DNA from: an uncultured delta proteobacterium | GTDB taxonomy: Bacteria; Desulfobacterota; Binatia; Binatales; Binataceae | Direction of reading: 5' to 3' | Length of the DNA: 64,000 bases | Assembly: GCA_963814035.1 (NCBI GenBank) | Contig: CAWFBH010000002.1 | Coordinates: 189,165-253,164, forward strand | Part shown: positions 2,611 to 9,852 of the stretch, in pieces | How positions within the stretch are numbered: position 1 is the first letter of the stretch | How the letters are laid out: every line of letters starts with the position of its first letter | Program-made: the position numbers and the translations under genes | The notes under the pieces: generated by a model | Seen by the model: only the letters and a program-made list of their open reading frames with translations | What the model was told of the DNA's origin: nothing | Database searches by the model: none

Positions 2611-3999
2611 TTAATGATTGGCGATGGCGGCGCTGGTTGCCCGCACGCGCAGTACCCGTTCCGTCCTCTCCGTCACCAATCCGACGCGTCCTCGTACGAT
2701 GCCGGGAAGCCACGCGATTGCTCCCCTTAGTTGACAGATGGGAAATTTGCCGCGCGCTCCGATGCTCATTTTCGCGTCGATGAAAATGTCCTTGACCTTG
2801 CGATGTCCCTGCATGCCAAGGGGTTCGATGCGATCGCCCGCGCGGAAATTTCGCACCACCAGGCCCTCGGCCGCCTCCGCTCCATCAAATAGCGCTTCGA
2901 ATTTGTTTGCCGGAATCGCACCCGACGTATGCGATACTGAGGTCATCTCGAAGACAAATCCAGCTTCCGCAATCTCGGTGATGCCTTCCCCCAATGTAAC
3001 CATGAACGGCCCCGATGCCTGCTCAGTCGCCGCAGGCTTGAGGATCCCGTATTCGCGCACCATCCGCACACCCGCGATATCCACCGACCCATTCACCGGC
3101 CCCTCGAGGCATAGCCGCCGGACCGCCTCGATATGGACCCGCTCGATGCGCCGCAAACTGCCGGTCTCGCGCTTGATGTATTGGCGAATAACCTCCGCCT
3201 GGAGCGCCGGATGAAGTTGCGCGAAACCTGAGATGTCGAGGCCGCGAATCGAGGCCTTTGATTCGAGTTCACGCTTCGCCGCCATGCCGACGAAATCGTC
3301 GAGCGCGCGCATCTCCGTGGCGAGTTGAACCAGCCGCCCGCGCAGCCCCGGCGCGTAGTTGCTCTCCAGCATCGGCATCAGCTCGGTGCGAACTCGATTG
3401 CGCAGGTAGGCGGAGGACTGGTTGGAGCTGTCGTTCACAAACTTCTCGTCGATGCTCTCTAGATACGTCAGCACCTCATCGCGGGTTACAGCGAGCATGG
3501 GCCGAATGATGCGCCCCGGCCCGTGCTCCGCCATCGCCGCGATGCCCGCCGCGCCTGCCCCGCGAAGCAGCCGCATCATGACCGTTTCCGCCTGGTCGTC
3601 CGCCTGATGCGCAACGGCGATATATTCCGCGCCGATGCGATCGGCGGCCCCATTGAGGAACGCATGCCGCACCTCGCGCGCGCGCTCCTCGAGATTCGGA
3701 GTGTCGGTGAAAAGATCGTTCGCCCGCTCGACGATGAGGTCGACACCGCATCGATGGCCAAGTTCGCGCACGAACTTCTCATCGCCATCGGATTCCGCGC
3801 CGCGGATTCCATGATTGAGATGCGCCGCTACGACCCGATAGCCAAACCGCTCGCGCAGCGCGAGCATCGCATGAAGGAGCGCGACCGAATCCGCCCCGCC
3901 CGATAGCGCAACGACTACAGTCGCATCGCTCCGGATGCCGATCCGCATCAGGCAGTCAGCGACCGCCCCGAGCATTCGGTTTTCGCGCCTGTCTCCCAC
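2611..3999 (-). CDS. tilS: tRNA(Ile)-lysidine synthetase
   Basis: PP-loop VVALSGGADSVALLHAM. Length ~460 aa. Conserved tilS-ftsH-folP order. Confidence 0.8.
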   Translation of the reverse strand: MGDRRENRMLGAVADCLMRIGIRSDATVVVALSGGADSVALLHAMLALRERFGYRVVAAHLNHGIRGAESDGDEKFVRELGHRCGVDLIVERANDLFTDTPNLEERAREVRHAFLNGAADRIGAEYIAVAHQADDQAETVMMRLLRGAGAAGIAAMAEHGPGRIIRPMLAVTRDEVLTYLESIDEKFVNDSSNQSSAYLRNRVRTELMPMLESNYAPGLRGRLVQLATEMRALDDFVGMAAKRELESKASIRGLDISGFAQLHPALQAEVIRQYIKRETGSLRRIERVHIEAVRRLCLEGPVNGSVDIAGVRMVREYGILKPAATEQASGPFMVTLGEGITEIAEAGFVFEMTSVSHTSGAIPANKFEALFDGAEAAEGLVVRNFRAGDRIEPLGMQGHRKVKDIFIDAKMSIGARGKFPICQLRGAIAWLPGIVRGRVGLVTERTERVLRVRATSAAIANH

Positions 4000-4010
4000 T
4001 CTCTCATTCT

Positions 4011-4052
4011 GGTTCCCCTTCCACTTCAGGGGAAGGGGTTAGGGGTTAGGTC
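4011..4052 (+). repeat. 42-bp hairpin repeat element GGTTCCCCTTCCACTTCAGGGGAAGGGGTTAGGGGTTAGGTC (8-bp perfect stem CCCCTTCC/GGAAGGGG)
   Basis: seen 7 times in window in both orientations. Confidence 0.85.
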
Positions 4053-4428
4053 TCCGACACGCCGCTGCAATCTTGCTCACCACGCCTTCGAAGTCCTCGG
4101 CGAGTTCCTCATTCCTGATGCGGAGGGTACCGATCCCCATCCGAGCGAGCGCCTGATCACGTTCGCGATCCCGCACGATTTGCCCATCGTGAACTGGCCC
4201 ATCCAACTCGATTGCCAAATTGGCGGCGGCGCAATAGAAGTCCACGATGAACCCTCCGATCACTTGCTGTCGATGAAAATGAATTCCGTCAACCGCGCTG
4301 CGCCTCAGTTTCTTCCAGAGCAGCCGCTCCTCGGGCGTCATATTGCGGCGCAACGATTTCGCAAATGTTACCTTCTCGGCGGCGACCGGTTGCCTGCGCG
4401 TGATCGGAATTTTGCTGCGGGCGGGCAT
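4039..4428 (-). CDS. DUF559 (Vsr-like endonuclease-domain) protein, copy 1
   Basis: MPARSKIPITRRQPVAAEKVTFAKSLRRNMTPEERLLWKKLRR...GFIVDFYC...LAIELDGPVHD...RDRERD is the DUF559 signature. The C-terminal codons AACRRPNP-stop lie inside the hairpin repeat. The ORF-track N-terminal extension (RFPFHFRGRGQGLG) reads through the inverted repeat and is rejected. Confidence 0.75.
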   Translation of the reverse strand: MPARSKIPITRRQPVAAEKVTFAKSLRRNMTPEERLLWKKLRRSAVDGIHFHRQQVIGGFIVDFYCAAANLAIELDGPVHDGQIVRDRERDQALARMGIGTLRIRNEELAEDFEGVVSKIAAACRRPNP

Positions 4429-4433
4429 TCGGA

Positions 4434-4475
4434 AACCTAACCCCTGGCCCCTTCCCCTGAAGTGGAAGGGGAATC
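4434..4475 (-). repeat. hairpin repeat element, inverted orientation (5' flank of DUF559 copy 1)
   Basis: AACCTAACCCCTGGCCCCTTCCCCTGAAGTGGAAGGGGAATC. Confidence 0.85.
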
Positions 4476-4586
4476 GGATTTGAAGACGAAGATATCTCGA
4501 TCGCGTCACCGAGACAATTCCATTCGACGTCTCAGTTAGGAAAAAACGGAAGGCGCCGCCGATCCGATCTGAAGACTCTGTTGTCT

Positions 4587-4628
4587 GGTTCCCCTTCCAC
4601 TTCAGGGGAAGGGGCTAGGGGTTAGGTC
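4587..4628 (+). repeat. hairpin repeat element
   Basis: GGTTCCCCTTCCACTTCAGGGGAAGGGGCTAGGGGTTAGGTC. Confidence 0.85.
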
Positions 4629-4700
4629 TCCGACACGCCGCCGCGATCCTACTCACCACGGCTTCGAGATCCTCGGCCAGTTCCTCGTTCCTGACGCGGA
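4625..4700 (-). pseudogene. remnant of a third DUF559 gene (C-terminal ~25 codons only)
   Basis: ...RVRNEELAEDLEAVVSRIAAACRRPNP-stop is homologous to the C-termini of both full copies, but the upstream sequence is unrelated. Confidence 0.6.
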
Positions 4701-4836
4701 GGCGGGTTCGATGCCAACCGTATCGACCACCTTCTCTCGCAGATAAAAGCGAAAGAAGGGAATCTGCCGGCACATCCCACTTTAACCCGCCCGTGTGCGA
4801 CAAAGGGGAACGGTAAGAGGGTTCGGTCCGCGACGA

Positions 4837-5751
4837 CTAGTCTCGATCGCCGCCCTCGCCAGCAACGGATCGCCCTCTCGATTGCGGCAAGAGCAGGGCT
4901 TGGACGCCGATCCAATTCCCCGGGACGTTGGAGCGAACAGTCTGGGCGCCGGTCGCCGATGAACTCGATAACGCCGAATCAACCCACACCGCGACGTGTT
5001 CATAGCTGTGTTGCTCTCGTATCGTTCCCAACGAAGGCGAACTGACGCGGCCACCACTCGCGGTAGCCTGACCATAGAGCATGAGCAGCATATCGGCGTT
5101 GTTGCCGGCGCCGGGAGTGATCGATGGAGACGATCCGGTTTTGGAGTAATTCTTGGTCACTCCCTTGGGTCTGCCATCAAAGGGAGTCGAGGTGTTGACT
5201 CCCGAGTAGTAAGCATATGCCCACTCGCAATGAGCGTTGTTGCCGACGCCGAAGGTCAATGAGGTTGGGTCGCCCGTGCTCCAGAAATGATAGAAGAGAC
5301 CCGCGGCGGTGTTGTCGCGGTTAAAGATCCAGGTCGGTCCTACCTGCTTATATCCGCTGGGAGCGGACAAAGCTGGGGTCGCGGAGCCCACCAGAAGCCA
5401 GACCAGCACCAGTTTACCATTGGGAGGCGAGCCGATTCCAACTGTGACCCGGCCACTTAAATTCGCGTTAAATCCGGCTGCGCCGCCGCCTTGAAAGAGG
5501 ATAGCGTTGTTCTTCTCGCGATCGACGGAGACCATTTTGCCGGGAACCGTCTCGATGGCTTCCGAGCCAATTCCGGCCAAGTGCTCGCCGCTCGGCGCGC
5601 CTGGCGCAGACATCGCGGTCCGAGCCGGCGATGGTGGAGCGGAAGCGGTCGAGCAACCGGCCATGCAGGCGATCATCAAAATGCCGACCAGCATAGGGGC
5701 AATTCTGATGACGGTTCCAAGTTCAGGTTTTTCGCGTTTCTCGAGACTCAC
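4837..5751 (-). CDS. hypothetical lipoprotein (signal peptide + lipobox MIACMAGC)
   Basis: N-terminal hydrophobic stretch ending in the lipobox L-M-A-G-C. No recognisable domain. Sits between the two duplicated DUF559 segments. True start may be the internal Met (~5694). Confidence 0.55.
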   Translation of the reverse strand: MSLEKREKPELGTVIRIAPMLVGILMIACMAGCSTASAPPSPARTAMSAPGAPSGEHLAGIGSEAIETVPGKMVSVDREKNNAILFQGGGAAGFNANLSGRVTVGIGSPPNGKLVLVWLLVGSATPALSAPSGYKQVGPTWIFNRDNTAAGLFYHFWSTGDPTSLTFGVGNNAHCEWAYAYYSGVNTSTPFDGRPKGVTKNYSKTGSSPSITPGAGNNADMLLMLYGQATASGGRVSSPSLGTIREQHSYEHVAVWVDSALSSSSATGAQTVRSNVPGNWIGVQALLLPQSRGRSVAGEGGDRD

Positions 5752-6124
5752 TATTTTGGTTCCTGTTAAGGGCCATTCCTTTGAAGTGGAAAAACGAACG
5801 AGGAAATATAGCCGATAATGACTACCGGTGGCACCAGATCCTGCCTGCCCCGCGATGCTTGGGCATGACGCCGATGCCGCCGTGACGCCTGGAAGTCCGC
5901 GCTTCGAGCATTCTGCCCGCGCTAACCTAAGTGCGTCGTGAGATTTCTCGATGCTTCGCTAGTCGGCGGGCGGCTTGCCGGCCACCAGAGGGAAATATCC
6001 GGCGGCGAAGAATCCCAGCGGCAGACAGAATCCGACGCTACTGAGGCTATGCGCAAGTGAGGTCGCGGTTGTCAGCGACCACCCGCAGCATTCGGTTTTC
6101 GCTCCTGTATCCATCTCCCATTCT

Positions 6125-6166
6125 GGTTCCCCTTCCACTTCAGGGGAAGGGGTTAGGGGTTAGGTC
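6125..6166 (+). repeat. hairpin repeat element
   Basis: identical to 4011..4052. Confidence 0.85.
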
Positions 6167-6542
6167 TCCGACACGCCGCCGCAATCTTGCTCACCACGCC
6201 TTCGAAGTCCTCGGCGAGTTCCTCATTCCTGATGCGGAGGGTACCAATCCCCATCCGAGCGAGCGCCTGATCACGTTCGCGATCCCGCACGATTTGCCCA
6301 TCGTGAACTGGCCCATCCAACTCGATTGCCAAATTGGCGGCGGCGCAATAGAAGTCCACGATGAATCCTCCGATCACTTGCTGTCGATGAAAATGAATTC
6401 CGTCAACCGCGCTGCGCCTCAATCTGTTCCAGAGCAGCCGCTCCTCGGGAGTCATGTTGCGGCGCAACGATTTCGCGAATGTTACCTTTTCGGCGGCAAC
6501 AGGCTGCCTGCGCGTGATCGGAATTTTGCTGCGGGCGGGCAT
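6153..6542 (-). CDS. DUF559 endonuclease-domain protein, copy 2
   Basis: 129/130 identity to copy 1 (K->N at one position). Confidence 0.75.
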   Translation of the reverse strand: MPARSKIPITRRQPVAAEKVTFAKSLRRNMTPEERLLWNRLRRSAVDGIHFHRQQVIGGFIVDFYCAAANLAIELDGPVHDGQIVRDRERDQALARMGIGTLRIRNEELAEDFEGVVSKIAAACRRPNP

Positions 6543-6547
6543 TCGGA

Positions 6548-6589
6548 AACCTAACCCCTGGCCCCTTCCCCTGAAGTGGAAGGGGAATC
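6548..6589 (-). repeat. hairpin repeat element, inverted
   Basis: as 4434..4475. Confidence 0.85.
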
Positions 6590-6699
6590 GGATTGAAGAC
6601 GAAAATACCTCAATCCGCGTCAGCAAGACAACTCCAGTCGACTCTCAGTTATGGAAAATACGGAAGGCGCCTCACTCCGATCCGGAGACTCTGTTGTCT

Positions 6700-6741
6700 G
6701 GTTCCCCTTCCACTTCAGGGGAAGGGGCTAGGGGTTAGGTC
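6700..6741 (+). repeat. hairpin repeat element
   Basis: GGTTCCCCTTCCACTTCAGGGGAAGGGGCTAGGGGTTAGGTC. It overlaps the stop codon of the hspR-like gene. Confidence 0.85.
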
Positions 6742-7052
6742 CGCGACGACAGCTGATCTAGCAGATGGAGGATCACCCCGATGCCAGGAAGATTGATGCC
6801 GAGGTCTTCGCCCAGCGATCGAATCGTCCGGATGCGACGCAGAGTCGCCTCGGTATAGACCGGCTCGCGGCGACCCTCGACTTCCAGCATCGTGGTATGC
6901 GTGATCAGCTCCTCGAATTCCCAGAGCCGGAGTTGATCGTCGCTGATGCCGCCTAAGGTGCGAAGCGCCTCGCGGCTGAGGTACGACGTTTCCCGCGACC
7001 GTCGCGCGCGCGAGGCTCCCCTGCTGCGGAAAACTTTGACCCTCGTAGCCAT
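6735..7052 (-). CDS. hspR: MerR-family heat-shock regulator (HspR/CbpM-like)
   Basis: MerR HTH ...YLSREALRTLGGISDDQLRLWEFEELI... Lies immediately downstream of a J-domain chaperone gene, as in dnaJ-hspR operons. Confidence 0.65.
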   Translation of the reverse strand: MATRVKVFRSRGASRARRSRETSYLSREALRTLGGISDDQLRLWEFEELITHTTMLEVEGRREPVYTEATLRRIRTIRSLGEDLGINLPGIGVILHLLDQLSSRT

Positions 7053-7058
7053 CGCGAA

Positions 7059-8165
7059 TCAGCTCCGTATCAAATCGGCGCGAGGATCGGGAACGCCGCG
7101 CGCCTGACGCTTTTCGGCGAGCTGTTCCATCAGCGTGCGCTCCTCGGCGGTCAGGCCGGTCGGCGCCAACACCTTGAGCTCGAACATAAGGTCGCCCGCC
7201 GGCTCCGTGCCACGTCCCGGAATGCCGCGGCCTTTGAGGCGCAGCGTCTTGCCGGTCTGGCTGTCGGCCGGAATCTTGAGCGAGACCTTCCCCCCGCCGA
7301 GCAGCGGCGCGGTCACCTGGGCGCCGAGCGAGGCTTCATAGTCCCAGACCGGAAGCGCGGCGCGCAGGTCGCGTCCCGAAATCGAAAACAACGCATGGGG
7401 TTCGAGGCGCACGCTCAAAAACAAATCGCCATTCAAGTCGGGACGCGGGCCCTTGCCGCCCTGCCCTTTGAGCCGGATGCGCGTGCCTTCGGCCACTCCC
7501 GGTGGAATCGAGACCTCCAGCGTGCGATGCCCGGGGATGACGCCGCTACCGCCGCAGTTCGGGCATACCTGCGCCGAGCGGATGAGCTTCACCTTGCCCT
7601 GCTTCTGCTCCGAGGCGACCATCCCGGTGCCGCCACATACGGTGCATTCGTCTTCGGCGGTGAGTTCGAGGCGCCGCTTCGCGCCGTGCATTGCCTCTTC
7701 GAGCGTCACGCGCACGTCGGCACTGAGGTCGGGGGCCTTTTGCGGGCGCGGCTTGGCGCCGAAACTGAATGACTGGAAATTGCCGGGACCGGTCCGGCGC
7801 GCATTAAACGGCGAATCGCCAAAGCCGAAAAACTGCGAAAAGAAATCGCTCATGTCGCCGGCTTCGAAGCCCGCGCCATGAGCGCCCTGCCCGCCCTGGC
7901 TGGCGGCATAGCGGCGCAGGATTTCTTCCTGATCGAGGCCATGCTCCCAGTCCGCGCCGAGTTGGTCGTACTTGCGCCGTTTTTCGGCATCACTGAGGAC
8001 CTGGTAGGCCTCGTTGATGTCCTTGAACTGCGCCTCGGCCTTCTTGTCGTTGGGATTTACGTCGGGATGGTATTTGCGGGCGAGCTTGCGAAAGGCCGAT
8101 TTGATGTCGGCCTCCGATGCGCTGCGTTCGACGCCGAGGACTTTGTAATAGTCTTTAAATTCCAT
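7059..8165 (-). CDS. dnaJ: DnaJ-family chaperone (J domain, G/F region, only two CxxCxGxG zinc-finger repeats, C-terminal substrate domain)
   Basis: [34 protein letters not shown]; CTVCGGTG...CPNCGGSG. Confidence 0.8.
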
Positions 8166-8425: not shown

Positions 8426-9086
8426 CTAATAGTCGCCGGCCGCCGCCTCGATCAGCGCCACGTCGCGCCTGATGATGGTCAGCCGGCTGCGCGTGCGCAA
8501 CTGCTGGAAGCGCAGCATCAGCAACCAGCCGAACATCGCGGTGAACGCCGCGAGCGAAGTCAGCAGCGTCGATCACCATCCGCGGATCTTCGAGGCCATG
8601 CTCGCCGGCGCGCGTGACCAGCACCGCGGGATGAATCGTGCGCCACAGCCGCACCGAGAGAATCACCACCGGCACATCGAGCGCCGCGACGATTCCGATG
8701 ACGGCGCCGAAGCGCGCGACCTCGGGCGTGTCATCGGCCATCGCGCGCAACATCAGGTATCCGCCATAGAGGAGCCACAGGATGAACGTCGTCGTCAGGC
8801 GCGAATCCCAGGTCCACCAGGTGCCCCAAATCGGCTTCGCCCATAGCGATCCGGTAATGAGCACCAGGGTGCAGAAGACCATCCCGATTTCAGCCGCCGC
8901 ATAGCCGAGGTCATCCCAAATCTGATCCTTGAGCCATAGATAGAACACGCCCGCGATGGCGACGATGCCGAAGGCCGCGAACGCGACCCATGCGCACGGC
9001 ACATGAAAATAAAAAATCCGCTGCACGATGCCCTGGTCTTCTTCGGTCGGGACCCATTCGAAGACCATGAAGATGCTGACCAGCAT
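8426..9086 (-). CDS. ccmC: heme exporter protein C (apparent frameshift near 8575)
   Basis: WGTWWTWDSRLT tryptophan-rich motif. The C-terminus ...LLTSLAAFTAMFGWLLMLRFQQ...AAAGDY-stop is recovered in a second frame. Confidence 0.8.
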
Positions 9087-9142
9087 CAGGACAAGCGTCG
9101 ACCATCCGAGTGCCGAGTGGCTTTGTTTTTCATTTTATTCTT

Positions 9143-9181
9143 TCCCCTTCCACTTCAGGGGAAGGGGCCGGGGGTTAGGTC
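9143..9181 (+). repeat. hairpin repeat element (solo copy between ccmB and ccmC)
   Basis: TTTCCCCTTCCACTTCAGGGGAAGGGGCCGGGGGTTAGGTC. Confidence 0.8.
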
Positions 9182-9852
9182 TAATCCTCACGGATCACAT
9201 GCTCAAAGAGCAATGCGCCCAGCGTGACGAAGAGGACATCGAAGGCGAGCAGGATCCCGAGCCATTGCGAGGCGGCGGCAAGCGGGAAGCCCGACAGCGC
9301 GGCCTCGCTCGCTTTCACGCCCGCGATGATCGCGGGAATGAACAGCGGAATCGCGAGAATCGGCAGCAGCAGATCACCCGCGCGGGTCCGGCCGGAAATC
9401 GCAGCCAGCAGCGTCGCGAGCGCGGCGAATCCCAACGTGCCGAGCATCAGCGAGGGCGCCAGGCGCGCTAGATCGGCGCTGAAATCGAGGTTGAAAAACA
9501 ACGTGATGAGCACGACGGCGGCAACCTCGACAATCGCCATGAAGGCAAAAGCGGCCGCAAGCTTCGCGGCATAAAGCGCGGCAGGATCGATCGGGCTGAG
9601 CGTCAGCGCGCGCATGCATCCGTTTTCATTTTCGGCGATCATCGCGCGGGTCGCGCCGAGCATCCCGGCAAAGACCAACGCGACCCACAGCGCCGCGGCG
9701 GCATCGCGCGCGCGGTCGGCGGGCTGCGGATTCAGCGCGAACACCAGCACCACCATTATCAGCAGTGACAGCGCGAACAATGCGATGGTGCTCTGGCCGC
9801 TGCGAATCTCGATGCGCAGGTCCTTGCGCAGTATCGCTGCAAACGCTCCCAT
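9181..9852 (-). CDS. ccmB: heme exporter permease CcmB
   Basis: 223-aa, 6-TM protein collinear with CcmB. Confidence 0.8.
   Translation of the reverse strand: MGAFAAILRKDLRIEIRSGQSTIALFALSLLIMVVLVFALNPQPADRARDAAAALWVALVFAGMLGATRAMIAENENGCMRALTLSPIDPAALYAAKLAAAFAFMAIVEVAAVVLITLFFNLDFSADLARLAPSLMLGTLGFAALATLLAAISGRTRAGDLLLPILAIPLFIPAIIAGVKASEAALSGFPLAAASQWLGILLAFDVLFVTLGALLFEHVIRED

Follow-up and report, generated by a model that had tools for sequence, protein, structure and literature searches.

A putative DUF559 nuclease gene bracketed by inverted triplex-motif repeats between tilS and hspR in Binataceae, and a candidate nuclease-repeat partnership

The window analyzed here is a stretch of 64,000 nucleotides from an uncultured delta proteobacterium of the Binataceae (assembly GCA_963814035.1, contig CAWFBH010000002.1), and its subject is a short gene of the DUF559 family, which lies between tilS and hspR and is bracketed by inverted copies of a dispersed intergenic repeat. 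The order of features in this region is tilS; a first copy of the cassette (copy A), which ends with a decayed repeat and a fragment of hspR; an orphan open reading frame (ORF) of 304 codons, ORF304, preceded by another decayed repeat; a fragment of the tilS 5′ end; a second copy of the cassette (copy B); and hspR (Table 1). A 24-nt core of the repeat, CCCCTTCCACTTCAGGGGAAGGGG, occurs seven times in the window (4015+, 4448-, 4591+, 6129+, 6562-, 6704+, and 9144+) and in none of 100 shuffles; six of the seven are at the DUF559 locus, and the remaining one stands alone at 9144 between ccmB- and ccmC-like genes. A preliminary description, made by reading the letters of the window, had reported two near-identical units, each composed of repeat, DUF559 gene, inverted repeat, spacer, and repeat. 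Indeed, the units at 3955-4634 and 6071-6747 (about 680 nt) are 93.8% identical over 682 aligned nt by self-BLAST and alignment, and both the third, truncated DUF559 remnant and the decayed tilS 5′ end carried by unit B are found as described. The 42-bp hairpin of that description is also present, but its unit measures about 46 nt and the seventh, solo copy has to be added.

Table 1. Features of the tilS-hspR region and of the solo repeat in the window (aa, amino acids; TM, triplex motif, the repeat; coordinates are those of the window).
Feature	Coordinates	Strand	Basis and remarks
tilS (tRNA-Ile lysidine synthetase)	2611-3975	-	Pfam ATP_bind_3, TilS, TilS_C; ORF reaches an upstream GTG at 3999
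TM repeat H1	4008-4053	+	TCTGGTT, C-block 4015-4022, loop, G-block 4031-4038, loop-2 TTA 4039-4041, third block GGGGTTAGG 4042-4050
DUF559_A, 129 aa, putative Vsr-fold nuclease gene	4039-4428	-	PF04480 E 2.2e-32; PDB 3HRL E 1e-30, 3R3P E 3e-6
TM repeat H2, inverted, loop-2 CCA	4433-4479	-	Inverted-repeat and core matching
H2-H3 spacer	4480-4583		83% identity between units
TM repeat H3, loop-2 CTA	4584-4629	+	Inverted-repeat and core matching
DUF559 3′-end remnant, last 29 codons	4615-4702	-	tblastn; 86% aa identity over 29 aa
Decayed TM (4775-4826), then 11-nt hspR/merR 3′-end fragment (4827-4837)	4775-4837	+	Alignment to merR-abutting L001 sequence and unit B; right end of duplicated copy A
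ORF304, orphan, lipoprotein-like	4837-5751	-	304 aa, lipobox LAGC, lipoprotein-type signal (…IACMAGCS…)
Decayed duplicate of tilS 5′ end and leader	6071-6121		85% identity to 3955-4007
TM repeat H1′	6122-6167	+	Loop-2 TTA 6153-6155 = DUF559_B stop codon
DUF559_B, 129 aa	6153-6542	-	PF04480 E 2.8e-32; 98.4% aa identity to copy A
TM repeat H2′, inverted	6547-6593	-	Core matching and unit alignment
TM repeat H3′	6697-6742	+	TTA within third block (6735-6737) = hspR/merR stop codon
MerR-family (HspR-like) regulator gene	6735-7052	-	Pfam MerR_2, MerR_1; synteny with L001; dnaJ (7059-8165) next
Solo TM repeat, loop-2 CCG	9137-9182	+	Short ccmB-ccmC intergenic gap

From 82 aligned copies, taken from the window and from related genomes, the repeat unit can be written as TCTGGTT, CCCCTTCC, an 8-nt loop, GGAAGGGG, YYR, GGGGTTAGG, and TCT, with the conserved ends TCTGGTT... 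and ...GGGGTTAGGTCT and without a GTAG or CGTC tag. Its architecture is that of the repeats called BoxC, PIT, or triplex motif (TM). BoxC/PIT/TM repeats have been known since 1992 and occur in hundreds of bacterial genomes, with 23 copies in Escherichia coli K-12 and more than 400 in Microcystis; the earlier accounts of BoxC/PIT are said to be those of Bergler in 1992 and of Hoyne and Maher in 2000. The TMs of E. coli and of numerous further bacteria have been described as solo elements or inverted doublets, always intergenic, whose loop 2 is either TTA (type A) or CCG (type B) (Holder et al., 2015, PMC4666352), and they have been linked to genome rearrangement and instability (PMC4666352). 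Membership in this described family (PMC4666352) had been missed in the preliminary description.

The likeness extends to every part of the element. In both cases a pyrimidine block is followed by the purine block complementary to it, by a loop of 3 nt, and by a second purine block that is the mirror of the first, and both are intergenic elements of about 36-46 nt, present a few tens of times per genome and in either orientation, with frequent inverted doublets (14 tail-out doublets in Binataceae), and rearranged loci. From the blocks CCCCTTCC, GGAAGGGG, and GGGGTT(A)GG, eight base triads with a 1-nt bulge are predicted, this bulge in the third block being a difference from the published elements. 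Loop 2 measures 3 nt and, among 81 Binataceae copies, reads TTA in 25, CTA in 14, CCA in 9, TCA in 3, and YYG in about 10, so that TTA and CCG are found here as in the published TMs. Furthermore, the third block mirrors the G-block and co-varies with it in seven lineages (Binataceae, E. coli, Neisseria, Deinococcus, Sphingomonas, Photobacterium, and Pseudanabaena): for example, the two blocks read GGGAGAGAG/GAGAGAGGG in Neisseria, GGGGGAGG/GGAGGGGG in Deinococcus, and GGGGAGGGG/GGGGTGGGG in Sphingomonas. The blocks themselves are lineage-specific, CCCCTTCC/GGAAGGGG/GGGGTTAGG in Binataceae against CCCTCNCCC/GGGNGAGGG/GGGNGAGGG in E. coli, and the E. coli consensus TM_ECO, CCCTCNCCC-N3-6-GGGNGAGGG-N3-GGGNGAGGG, is not matched by the Binataceae blocks. 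Because the block architecture is shared while the E. coli consensus is unmatched, the “hairpin” of the window is, judging from its sequence, a lineage variant of the BoxC/PIT/TM class and not the E. coli family itself.

Both ends of the DUF559 gene are built into TMs. At the 3′ end, loop 2 of H1 supplies the stop codon of DUF559_A and the third block supplies the codons P-N-P; H1 and H1′ are 100% identical. In the preliminary description the stop codon and the last eight codons were placed in the repeat, of which the stop codon holds and the number of codons comes down to three, or to five when a conserved GGTCTCCG is counted. Loop 2 of the TM at the gene 3′ end is always TTA, TCA, or CTA (window 4039-4041 and the equivalents in the related loci L001, L045, and L042). 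Read on the complementary strand these are the three stop codons, and CCA is found in the TM before the start codon, so the coding role restricts the type of loop 2. At the 5′ end, the third block of H2, which likely contains the ribosome-binding site, precedes the start codon of DUF559_A by 7 nt, and the homologues have this start codon in common. The arms bracketing each gene are inverted, 90% complementary over 50 nt. The tail-out doublet made up of H2, the spacer, and H3 can be folded into a single long hairpin (-128 kcal/mol, z = -12). Matches to the plant microRNA precursor MIR847 at 4434-4628 and 6548-6741 (37-41 bits vs. a gathering score of 184) were rejected as an artefact of this long inverted-repeat hairpin; over the whole window, Rfam gives nothing at gathering score, introns included, and no tRNA or tmRNA was found.

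The encoded protein belongs to DUF559, a family of 21,264 clusters at 50% identity at E <= 1e-3 and about 8,300 at E <= 1e-10, and keeps the catalytic acidic and His residues: among 40 homologues, D63, D76, H80, and D87 are invariant and E74 is near-invariant. The closest structure, 3HRL from Neisseria gonorrhoeae, is uncharacterised, and a more distant one is the catalytic domain of the homing endonuclease I-Bth0305I (3R3P). The protein is therefore predicted to adopt the Vsr/PD-(D/E)xK fold of EDxHD type, and the nuclease fold named in the preliminary description is borne out by this relationship to I-Bth0305I, an enzyme reportedly described by Taylor et al. in 2011. EDxHD homing endonucleases share with it a homologous catalytic domain (profile E 3e-6) and a selfish-element flavour, but they reside inside group I introns or inteins and carry an extra N-terminal DNA-binding region, whereas the ORF here is free-standing, of 129 aa, and intergenic, with no intron by Rfam. 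Vsr and Caulobacter VsrA (PMC12907096) are of the same fold superfamily and small, and would, like the window protein, probably act by nicking. In contrast to Vsr, the window protein has no match to the Vsr Pfam family PF03852, is flanked by repeats, and has no cytosine methyltransferase gene among its neighbours tilS, hspR, and dnaJ, to which that screen was limited. E. coli YcjD (b1289) and the N. gonorrhoeae 3HRL protein are members of the same family (NCBIfam PRK09767, E 2e-18, for the former), and both are TM-flanked in their own genomes, although their identity to the window protein is 35-37%. Some database “proteins” (P0121, P0122, P0128, and P0136) contain two or three DUF559 domains or long P/G/E-rich extensions, and a “DUF559 protein” of 1,600 aa is annotated in Pseudanabaena (L156). 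Probably, these records are read-through calls across TMs and tandem cassettes.

The two units of the window differ at 42 positions, and the differences are unevenly distributed: neutral parts are 83-85% identical, the coding sequences 96.7%, and the TMs at 138 of 139 positions. Of 13 nucleotide differences between DUF559_A and DUF559_B, 11 are synonymous and two non-synonymous; both copies are under purifying selection, and the TMs are either strongly constrained or homogenised between the duplicates. Since neutral DNA, coding sequence, and TMs have diverged to different degrees, the duplication is old and real. Copy B has a 192-bp deletion between a TM and the decayed TM. In L001, where the syntenic tilS orthologue is called at 454 aa, the same cassette occurs once, with the same remnant and with a decayed TM directly abutting the hspR stop codon. 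Window 4745-4837 is orthologous to this TM-hspR stretch of L001 and stops after 11 nt of hspR. The DUF559 remnant is also an old feature, because it is common to L001 and L045. The two copies are an old local duplication, direct and of 0.7-0.9 kb, of the whole tilS-hspR intergenic cassette around an inserted orphan ORF, with junctions at TMs, and not a transposition. Local duplication rather than import had already been given as the origin of the second copy. A junction said to recur at 4822 and 6730 is, near 4822, a decayed copy of the repeat and not an intact one, GAGGGTTCGG|TCCGCGACGAC (4817-4837), in which TCCGCGACGAC is the 11-nt 3′-end fragment of hspR/merR. ORF304 sits between the cassette copies and is flanked by the decayed TMs at 4775-4826 and at about 5755-5800, the latter inverted and just upstream of the ORF; Pfam, NCBIfam, and PADLOC gave no match to ORF304, and none of the related loci contains a homologue. 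PADLOC defence models gave weak partial matches only.

The association of gene and repeat is found far outside Binataceae. Eighty metagenomic DUF559 relatives (42-57% identity) were collected by protein patterns alone, so that the sample is unbiased for repeats. In this sample, C/G-armed hairpins occur at 5.4/kb upstream and 3.4/kb downstream of DUF559 and at 0.14/kb elsewhere, the density of TM-type hairpins in distant non-ORF DNA being 0.28/kb, and the tail motif GGGGNTTAGGT is enriched 50-80-fold around the gene. A TM-type hairpin lies within 250 nt of 51 of 55 DUF559 genes (93%) but of only 4 of 60 neighbouring ORFs (7%) on the same contigs (Fisher P = 6e-23), and flank-to-flank inverted matches of at least 30 bits are seen at 26% of the loci and at none of 117 shifted controls. 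The modal metagenomic layout is doublet(-,+), gene, doublet(-,+). For example, a 54%-identical homologue in a different context (L049) has TM doublets on both sides and its stop codon in the tail motif, and a 57% homologue (L057) is preceded by six tandem doublets. Tandem TM-doublet arrays beside DUF559 are found at L057 9440-9985 (metagenomic, six units of about 87 bp) and at L154 1890-3324 (Photobacterium, more than 14 TMs).

Among named taxa, the gene-repeat pattern is present in nine of ten, again with lineage-specific repeat sequences: it is seen in N. gonorrhoeae, Synechocystis, Deinococcus, Azospirillum, Photobacterium, Pseudanabaena, Picosynechococcus, Shinella, and Sphingomonas, so the same anatomy extends over Neisseria, cyanobacteria, Deinococcus, and alpha- and gammaproteobacteria. 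Gene and repeat travel together across phyla, and the same junctions recur in unrelated contexts, in agreement with the earlier statement that the gene and its terminal inverted repeats form one unit. In Sphingomonas parapaucimobilis, the suf operon contains, between sufB and sufC, an entire cassette of about 430 bp with the order TM(+)-DUF559-TM(-) (L155 1433-1863), and the same strain has at least two further DUF559 genes on other replicons. A search for the corresponding empty site found no close relative in the plasmid collection, and only the distant Azospirillum has sufB and sufC contiguous. According to Holder et al., mobility functions were never found near TMs, and ycjD, DUF559, and endonucleases are not mentioned there (PMC4666352); the link to a DUF559 gene is new relative to that published work, in which no associated mobility or nuclease gene is reported. 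No paper joining BoxC/TM to DUF559 was found in a literature search outside which the original BoxC/PIT papers of 1992-2002 lay. The repeat family and the protein family were already known, and their systematic pairing is apparently new.

In representative genomes, the exact 24-nt core is found at 47 loci, nearly all in six metagenome-assembled genomes (MAGs) of Binataceae (Candidatus Binatota) with 5-25 copies per genome. In three of these MAGs (L027, L042, and L045) a DUF559 gene was found, at a single locus each, and the loci fetched from the other three have none. In L027, L042, L045, and L001, the gene is single, bracketed by TMs, and located between tilS and hspR-dnaJ; the cassette is old and has been vertically kept at this place in Binataceae. 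This single-copy state, together with the purifying selection on the window copies, speaks against the earlier idea that the multicopy gene reflects active spread. The genome-wide association of hairpin and DUF559 on which the preliminary description had staked its reading holds in one direction: most TM copies in a genome do not adjoin DUF559, literally the outcome that it had set against itself, yet every DUF559 examined is repeat-flanked, which is the pattern of repetitive extragenic palindromic (REP) sequences and their transposases (RAYT). Close TM pairs without a gene are tail-out (-,+) in 14 of 14 cases, and pairs bracketing a gene are tail-in (+,-) in six of six. When distant TMs are compared with gene-adjoining TM arms, 60% match within a locus and 42% between loci, a difference that carries no information, since most sampled loci share one arm type. 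The solo TM of the window recurs at the orthologous site of L048 and also, with an altered loop, in L001; it was rejected as an insertion, because the loop-variant TM at the same L001 site leaves no empty site. Beside this TM, the ccmC-like gene of L001 and L048 seems to begin at a conserved ATG that corresponds to 9131-9133, where the window lacks one base, so that its ORF opens only at 9086 (alignment of window 9086-9135); the missing base reflects a sequencing indel or else a genuine frameshift. The only exact core match outside Binataceae is at L015 1045-1068 (LJUQ01000230.1, labelled Bacteroides sp. SM23_62_1), near other C/G hairpins, and it could be due to a mis-binned contig, horizontal transfer, or convergence.

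The tilS-hspR region differs in all five relatives, with junctions at TMs: the DUF559 gene is inverted in L042, and about 700 extra bp are found in L001. The locus is a repeat-associated rearrangement hotspot, one of the two possibilities raised in the preliminary description. At L027 3100-6370, a different cargo occupies the same hotspot: an RHS-like C-terminal fragment, an ORF of 476 aa, and, beside a TM, a duplicated fragment (30 nt) of the hspR 3′ end. DUF559 has been listed, without follow-up, among the families enriched as predicted targets of programmed inversion (PMC9881135), and such an enrichment is the outcome expected of flanking inverted TMs.

The family member in E. coli has a similar setting. 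In K-12, a degenerate TM over the stop codon of ycjD and a ycjD 3′ remnant are found, and the published TM_ECO #9 (1,351,204-1,351,239) lies 168 nt downstream of the gene. Among 5,426 complete E. coli genomes, 62% have ycjD with TM and 38% have the eefRABCD operon at the same place (PMC12817139). These are mutually exclusive alleles between fabI and sapF, one being ycjD with TM (L149, K-12 1,351,200-1,351,800) and the other the 7.8-kb eefRABCD efflux operon (L160, O157:H7), whose borders are without TM.

Among known systems, that of REP or REPIN elements and RAYT is close in organization. REP-RAYT systems are said to have been reported by Nunvar in 2010. As in those systems (Bertels and Rainey, 2011, PMC3116915), the nuclease gene is inherited vertically in a single copy and has the dispersed hairpin repeat of its genome on both sides, the repeats are solo or inverted doublets, and their sequence is lineage-specific in a conserved architecture. 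The enzyme here is, however, of PF04480 with a predicted PD-(D/E)xK Vsr fold and not an HUH Y1 transposase (PF01797), and TMs differ from REPs in lacking the GTAG/CGTC tag, in having a third mirror block, and in their lower copy numbers. The explanation that we favour, at roughly even odds, is that the locus is a DUF559-TM cassette, a nuclease gene with its ribosome-binding region and stop codon in inverted TMs, whose product would work on folded TMs and form with them a partnership of the REP/RAYT kind. If RAYT/REP and the nuclease fold are taken as guides, the DUF559 protein would recognise TMs folded as hairpin, cruciform, or triplex and would nick at or near them; recombinational repair of the nicks would keep TMs homogeneous and might occasionally copy them to new intergenic sites. 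TM-bearing loci, above all that of DUF559 itself, would thereby be made prone to duplication, inversion, and exchange of cargo.

Several observations weigh against this partnership. Binding or cutting of a TM by any DUF559 protein is a prediction from analogy, a 129-aa nuclease alone is incapable of strand transfer, and Caulobacter VsrA, the sole DUF559 protein with in vivo data, has been read as a T:G mismatch repair enzyme (PMC12907096). TM sites are mostly orthologous between species, so the TMs are old and static; presence or absence of a TM was seen in one case only (L008 vs. L028), and the only extra-copy TM, which has a different loop, lies beside an existing TM in L041. Cross-species TM conservation of 92% (flanks 65% and 72%) was discounted, since it is inflated by the fetching of loci with the exact 24-mer. 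In E. coli, genomes with ycjD have 3.2 extra TM-matching places and those without it 2.5, a crude count confounded by phylogeny; the 38% of E. coli without ycjD at the locus have similar TM numbers, so TMs persist without the gene.

An alternative, which we consider unlikely, is an autonomous selfish or homing cassette, whose nuclease would cut the TM or doublet so that the gene and its TM ends are copied in by repair, solo TMs being only targets or footprints. Homology to the catalytic domain of EDxHD homing endonucleases speaks for it, as do the unrelated contexts across phyla, including the site inside sufB-sufC, the tandem copies and 3′ remnants, the presence or absence of ycjD within E. 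coli, and the position of the gene inside a (-,+) doublet in Deinococcus and Synechocystis. Against these, the gene is single-copy and syntenic in four species-level Binataceae genomes and under strong purifying selection, the window copies arose by segmental duplication, and the extra DNA-binding domain of the known EDxHD enzymes is missing. Target-site duplications and empty sites were looked for, as the preliminary description had suggested: no target-site duplication is visible at the ends of the window cassette, at the Sphingomonas cassette, or at the extra TM of L041, and no clean pair of filled and empty cassette sites with precise ends was found. As for terminal-inverted-repeat (TIR) transposons and miniature inverted-repeat transposable elements, the arms are TIR-like (50 nt, 90%), a target-site duplication is not visible at these three places, and there is no transposase domain.

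It is likewise doubtful that the TMs are cis elements of the gene, serving as an insulator, as a panhandle in the mRNA that hides the ribosome-binding site, or as a switch that inverts to control a possibly toxic nuclease, with the substrate of the enzyme elsewhere (e.g., a T:G mismatch) and the dispersed TMs independent of the gene. The overlap of the third block with the ribosome-binding region and the stop codon and the 90% complementarity of the 5′ and 3′ TMs over 50 nt would suit such a role, but BoxC/PIT elements had neither promoter nor terminator activity in published tests (PMC4666352). The inverted gene of L042 and the enrichment of DUF559 among predicted programmed inversions are consistent with a switch. 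A mismatch substrate would agree with the linkage of Caulobacter VsrA to a cytosine methyltransferase, though no methyltransferase gene is adjacent here. The persistence of TMs in E. coli without ycjD fits gene-independent repeats, whereas two facts would be left unexplained: the same repeat, including the last codons of the gene, occurs at about 20 other intergenic sites, and gene and repeat stay together although the sequence of the repeat differs from phylum to phylum.

Coincidence, in which TMs gather in tolerant intergenic DNA where DUF559 happens to sit, would agree with their being intergenic, old, and mostly not beside DUF559, but it is very improbable in view of the excess of TM-bearing DUF559 genes over neighbouring ORFs, of the hairpin density beside the gene over that in distant non-ORF DNA, and of the start and stop junctions conserved across phyla. 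An assembly artefact, a collapsed or expanded repeat having made the second unit, has nothing in its favour beyond the presence of repeats and can be dismissed on the region-specific divergence at 42 of 682 positions, on the deletion and decayed tilS fragment that unit B has of its own, and on a protein (P0001) 98% identical to that of copy A and recorded from a 260-kb NCBI/ENA contig.

A broader and more tentative proposal can also be made, to which we give somewhat less than even odds: small DUF559 nucleases including YcjD may be the missing partner enzyme of BoxC/PIT/TM, forming a second REP-type system, independent of RAYT and present in many phyla, that would generate and homogenise the repeats and cause the genome instability described near them. 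DUF559 is a very large family without agreed function, and the link between gene and repeat gives BoxC/TM and DUF559 each a candidate function, which is testable in E. coli K-12. If true, RAYT/REPIN would be joined by a second class of domesticated partnership between a nuclease and a repeat.

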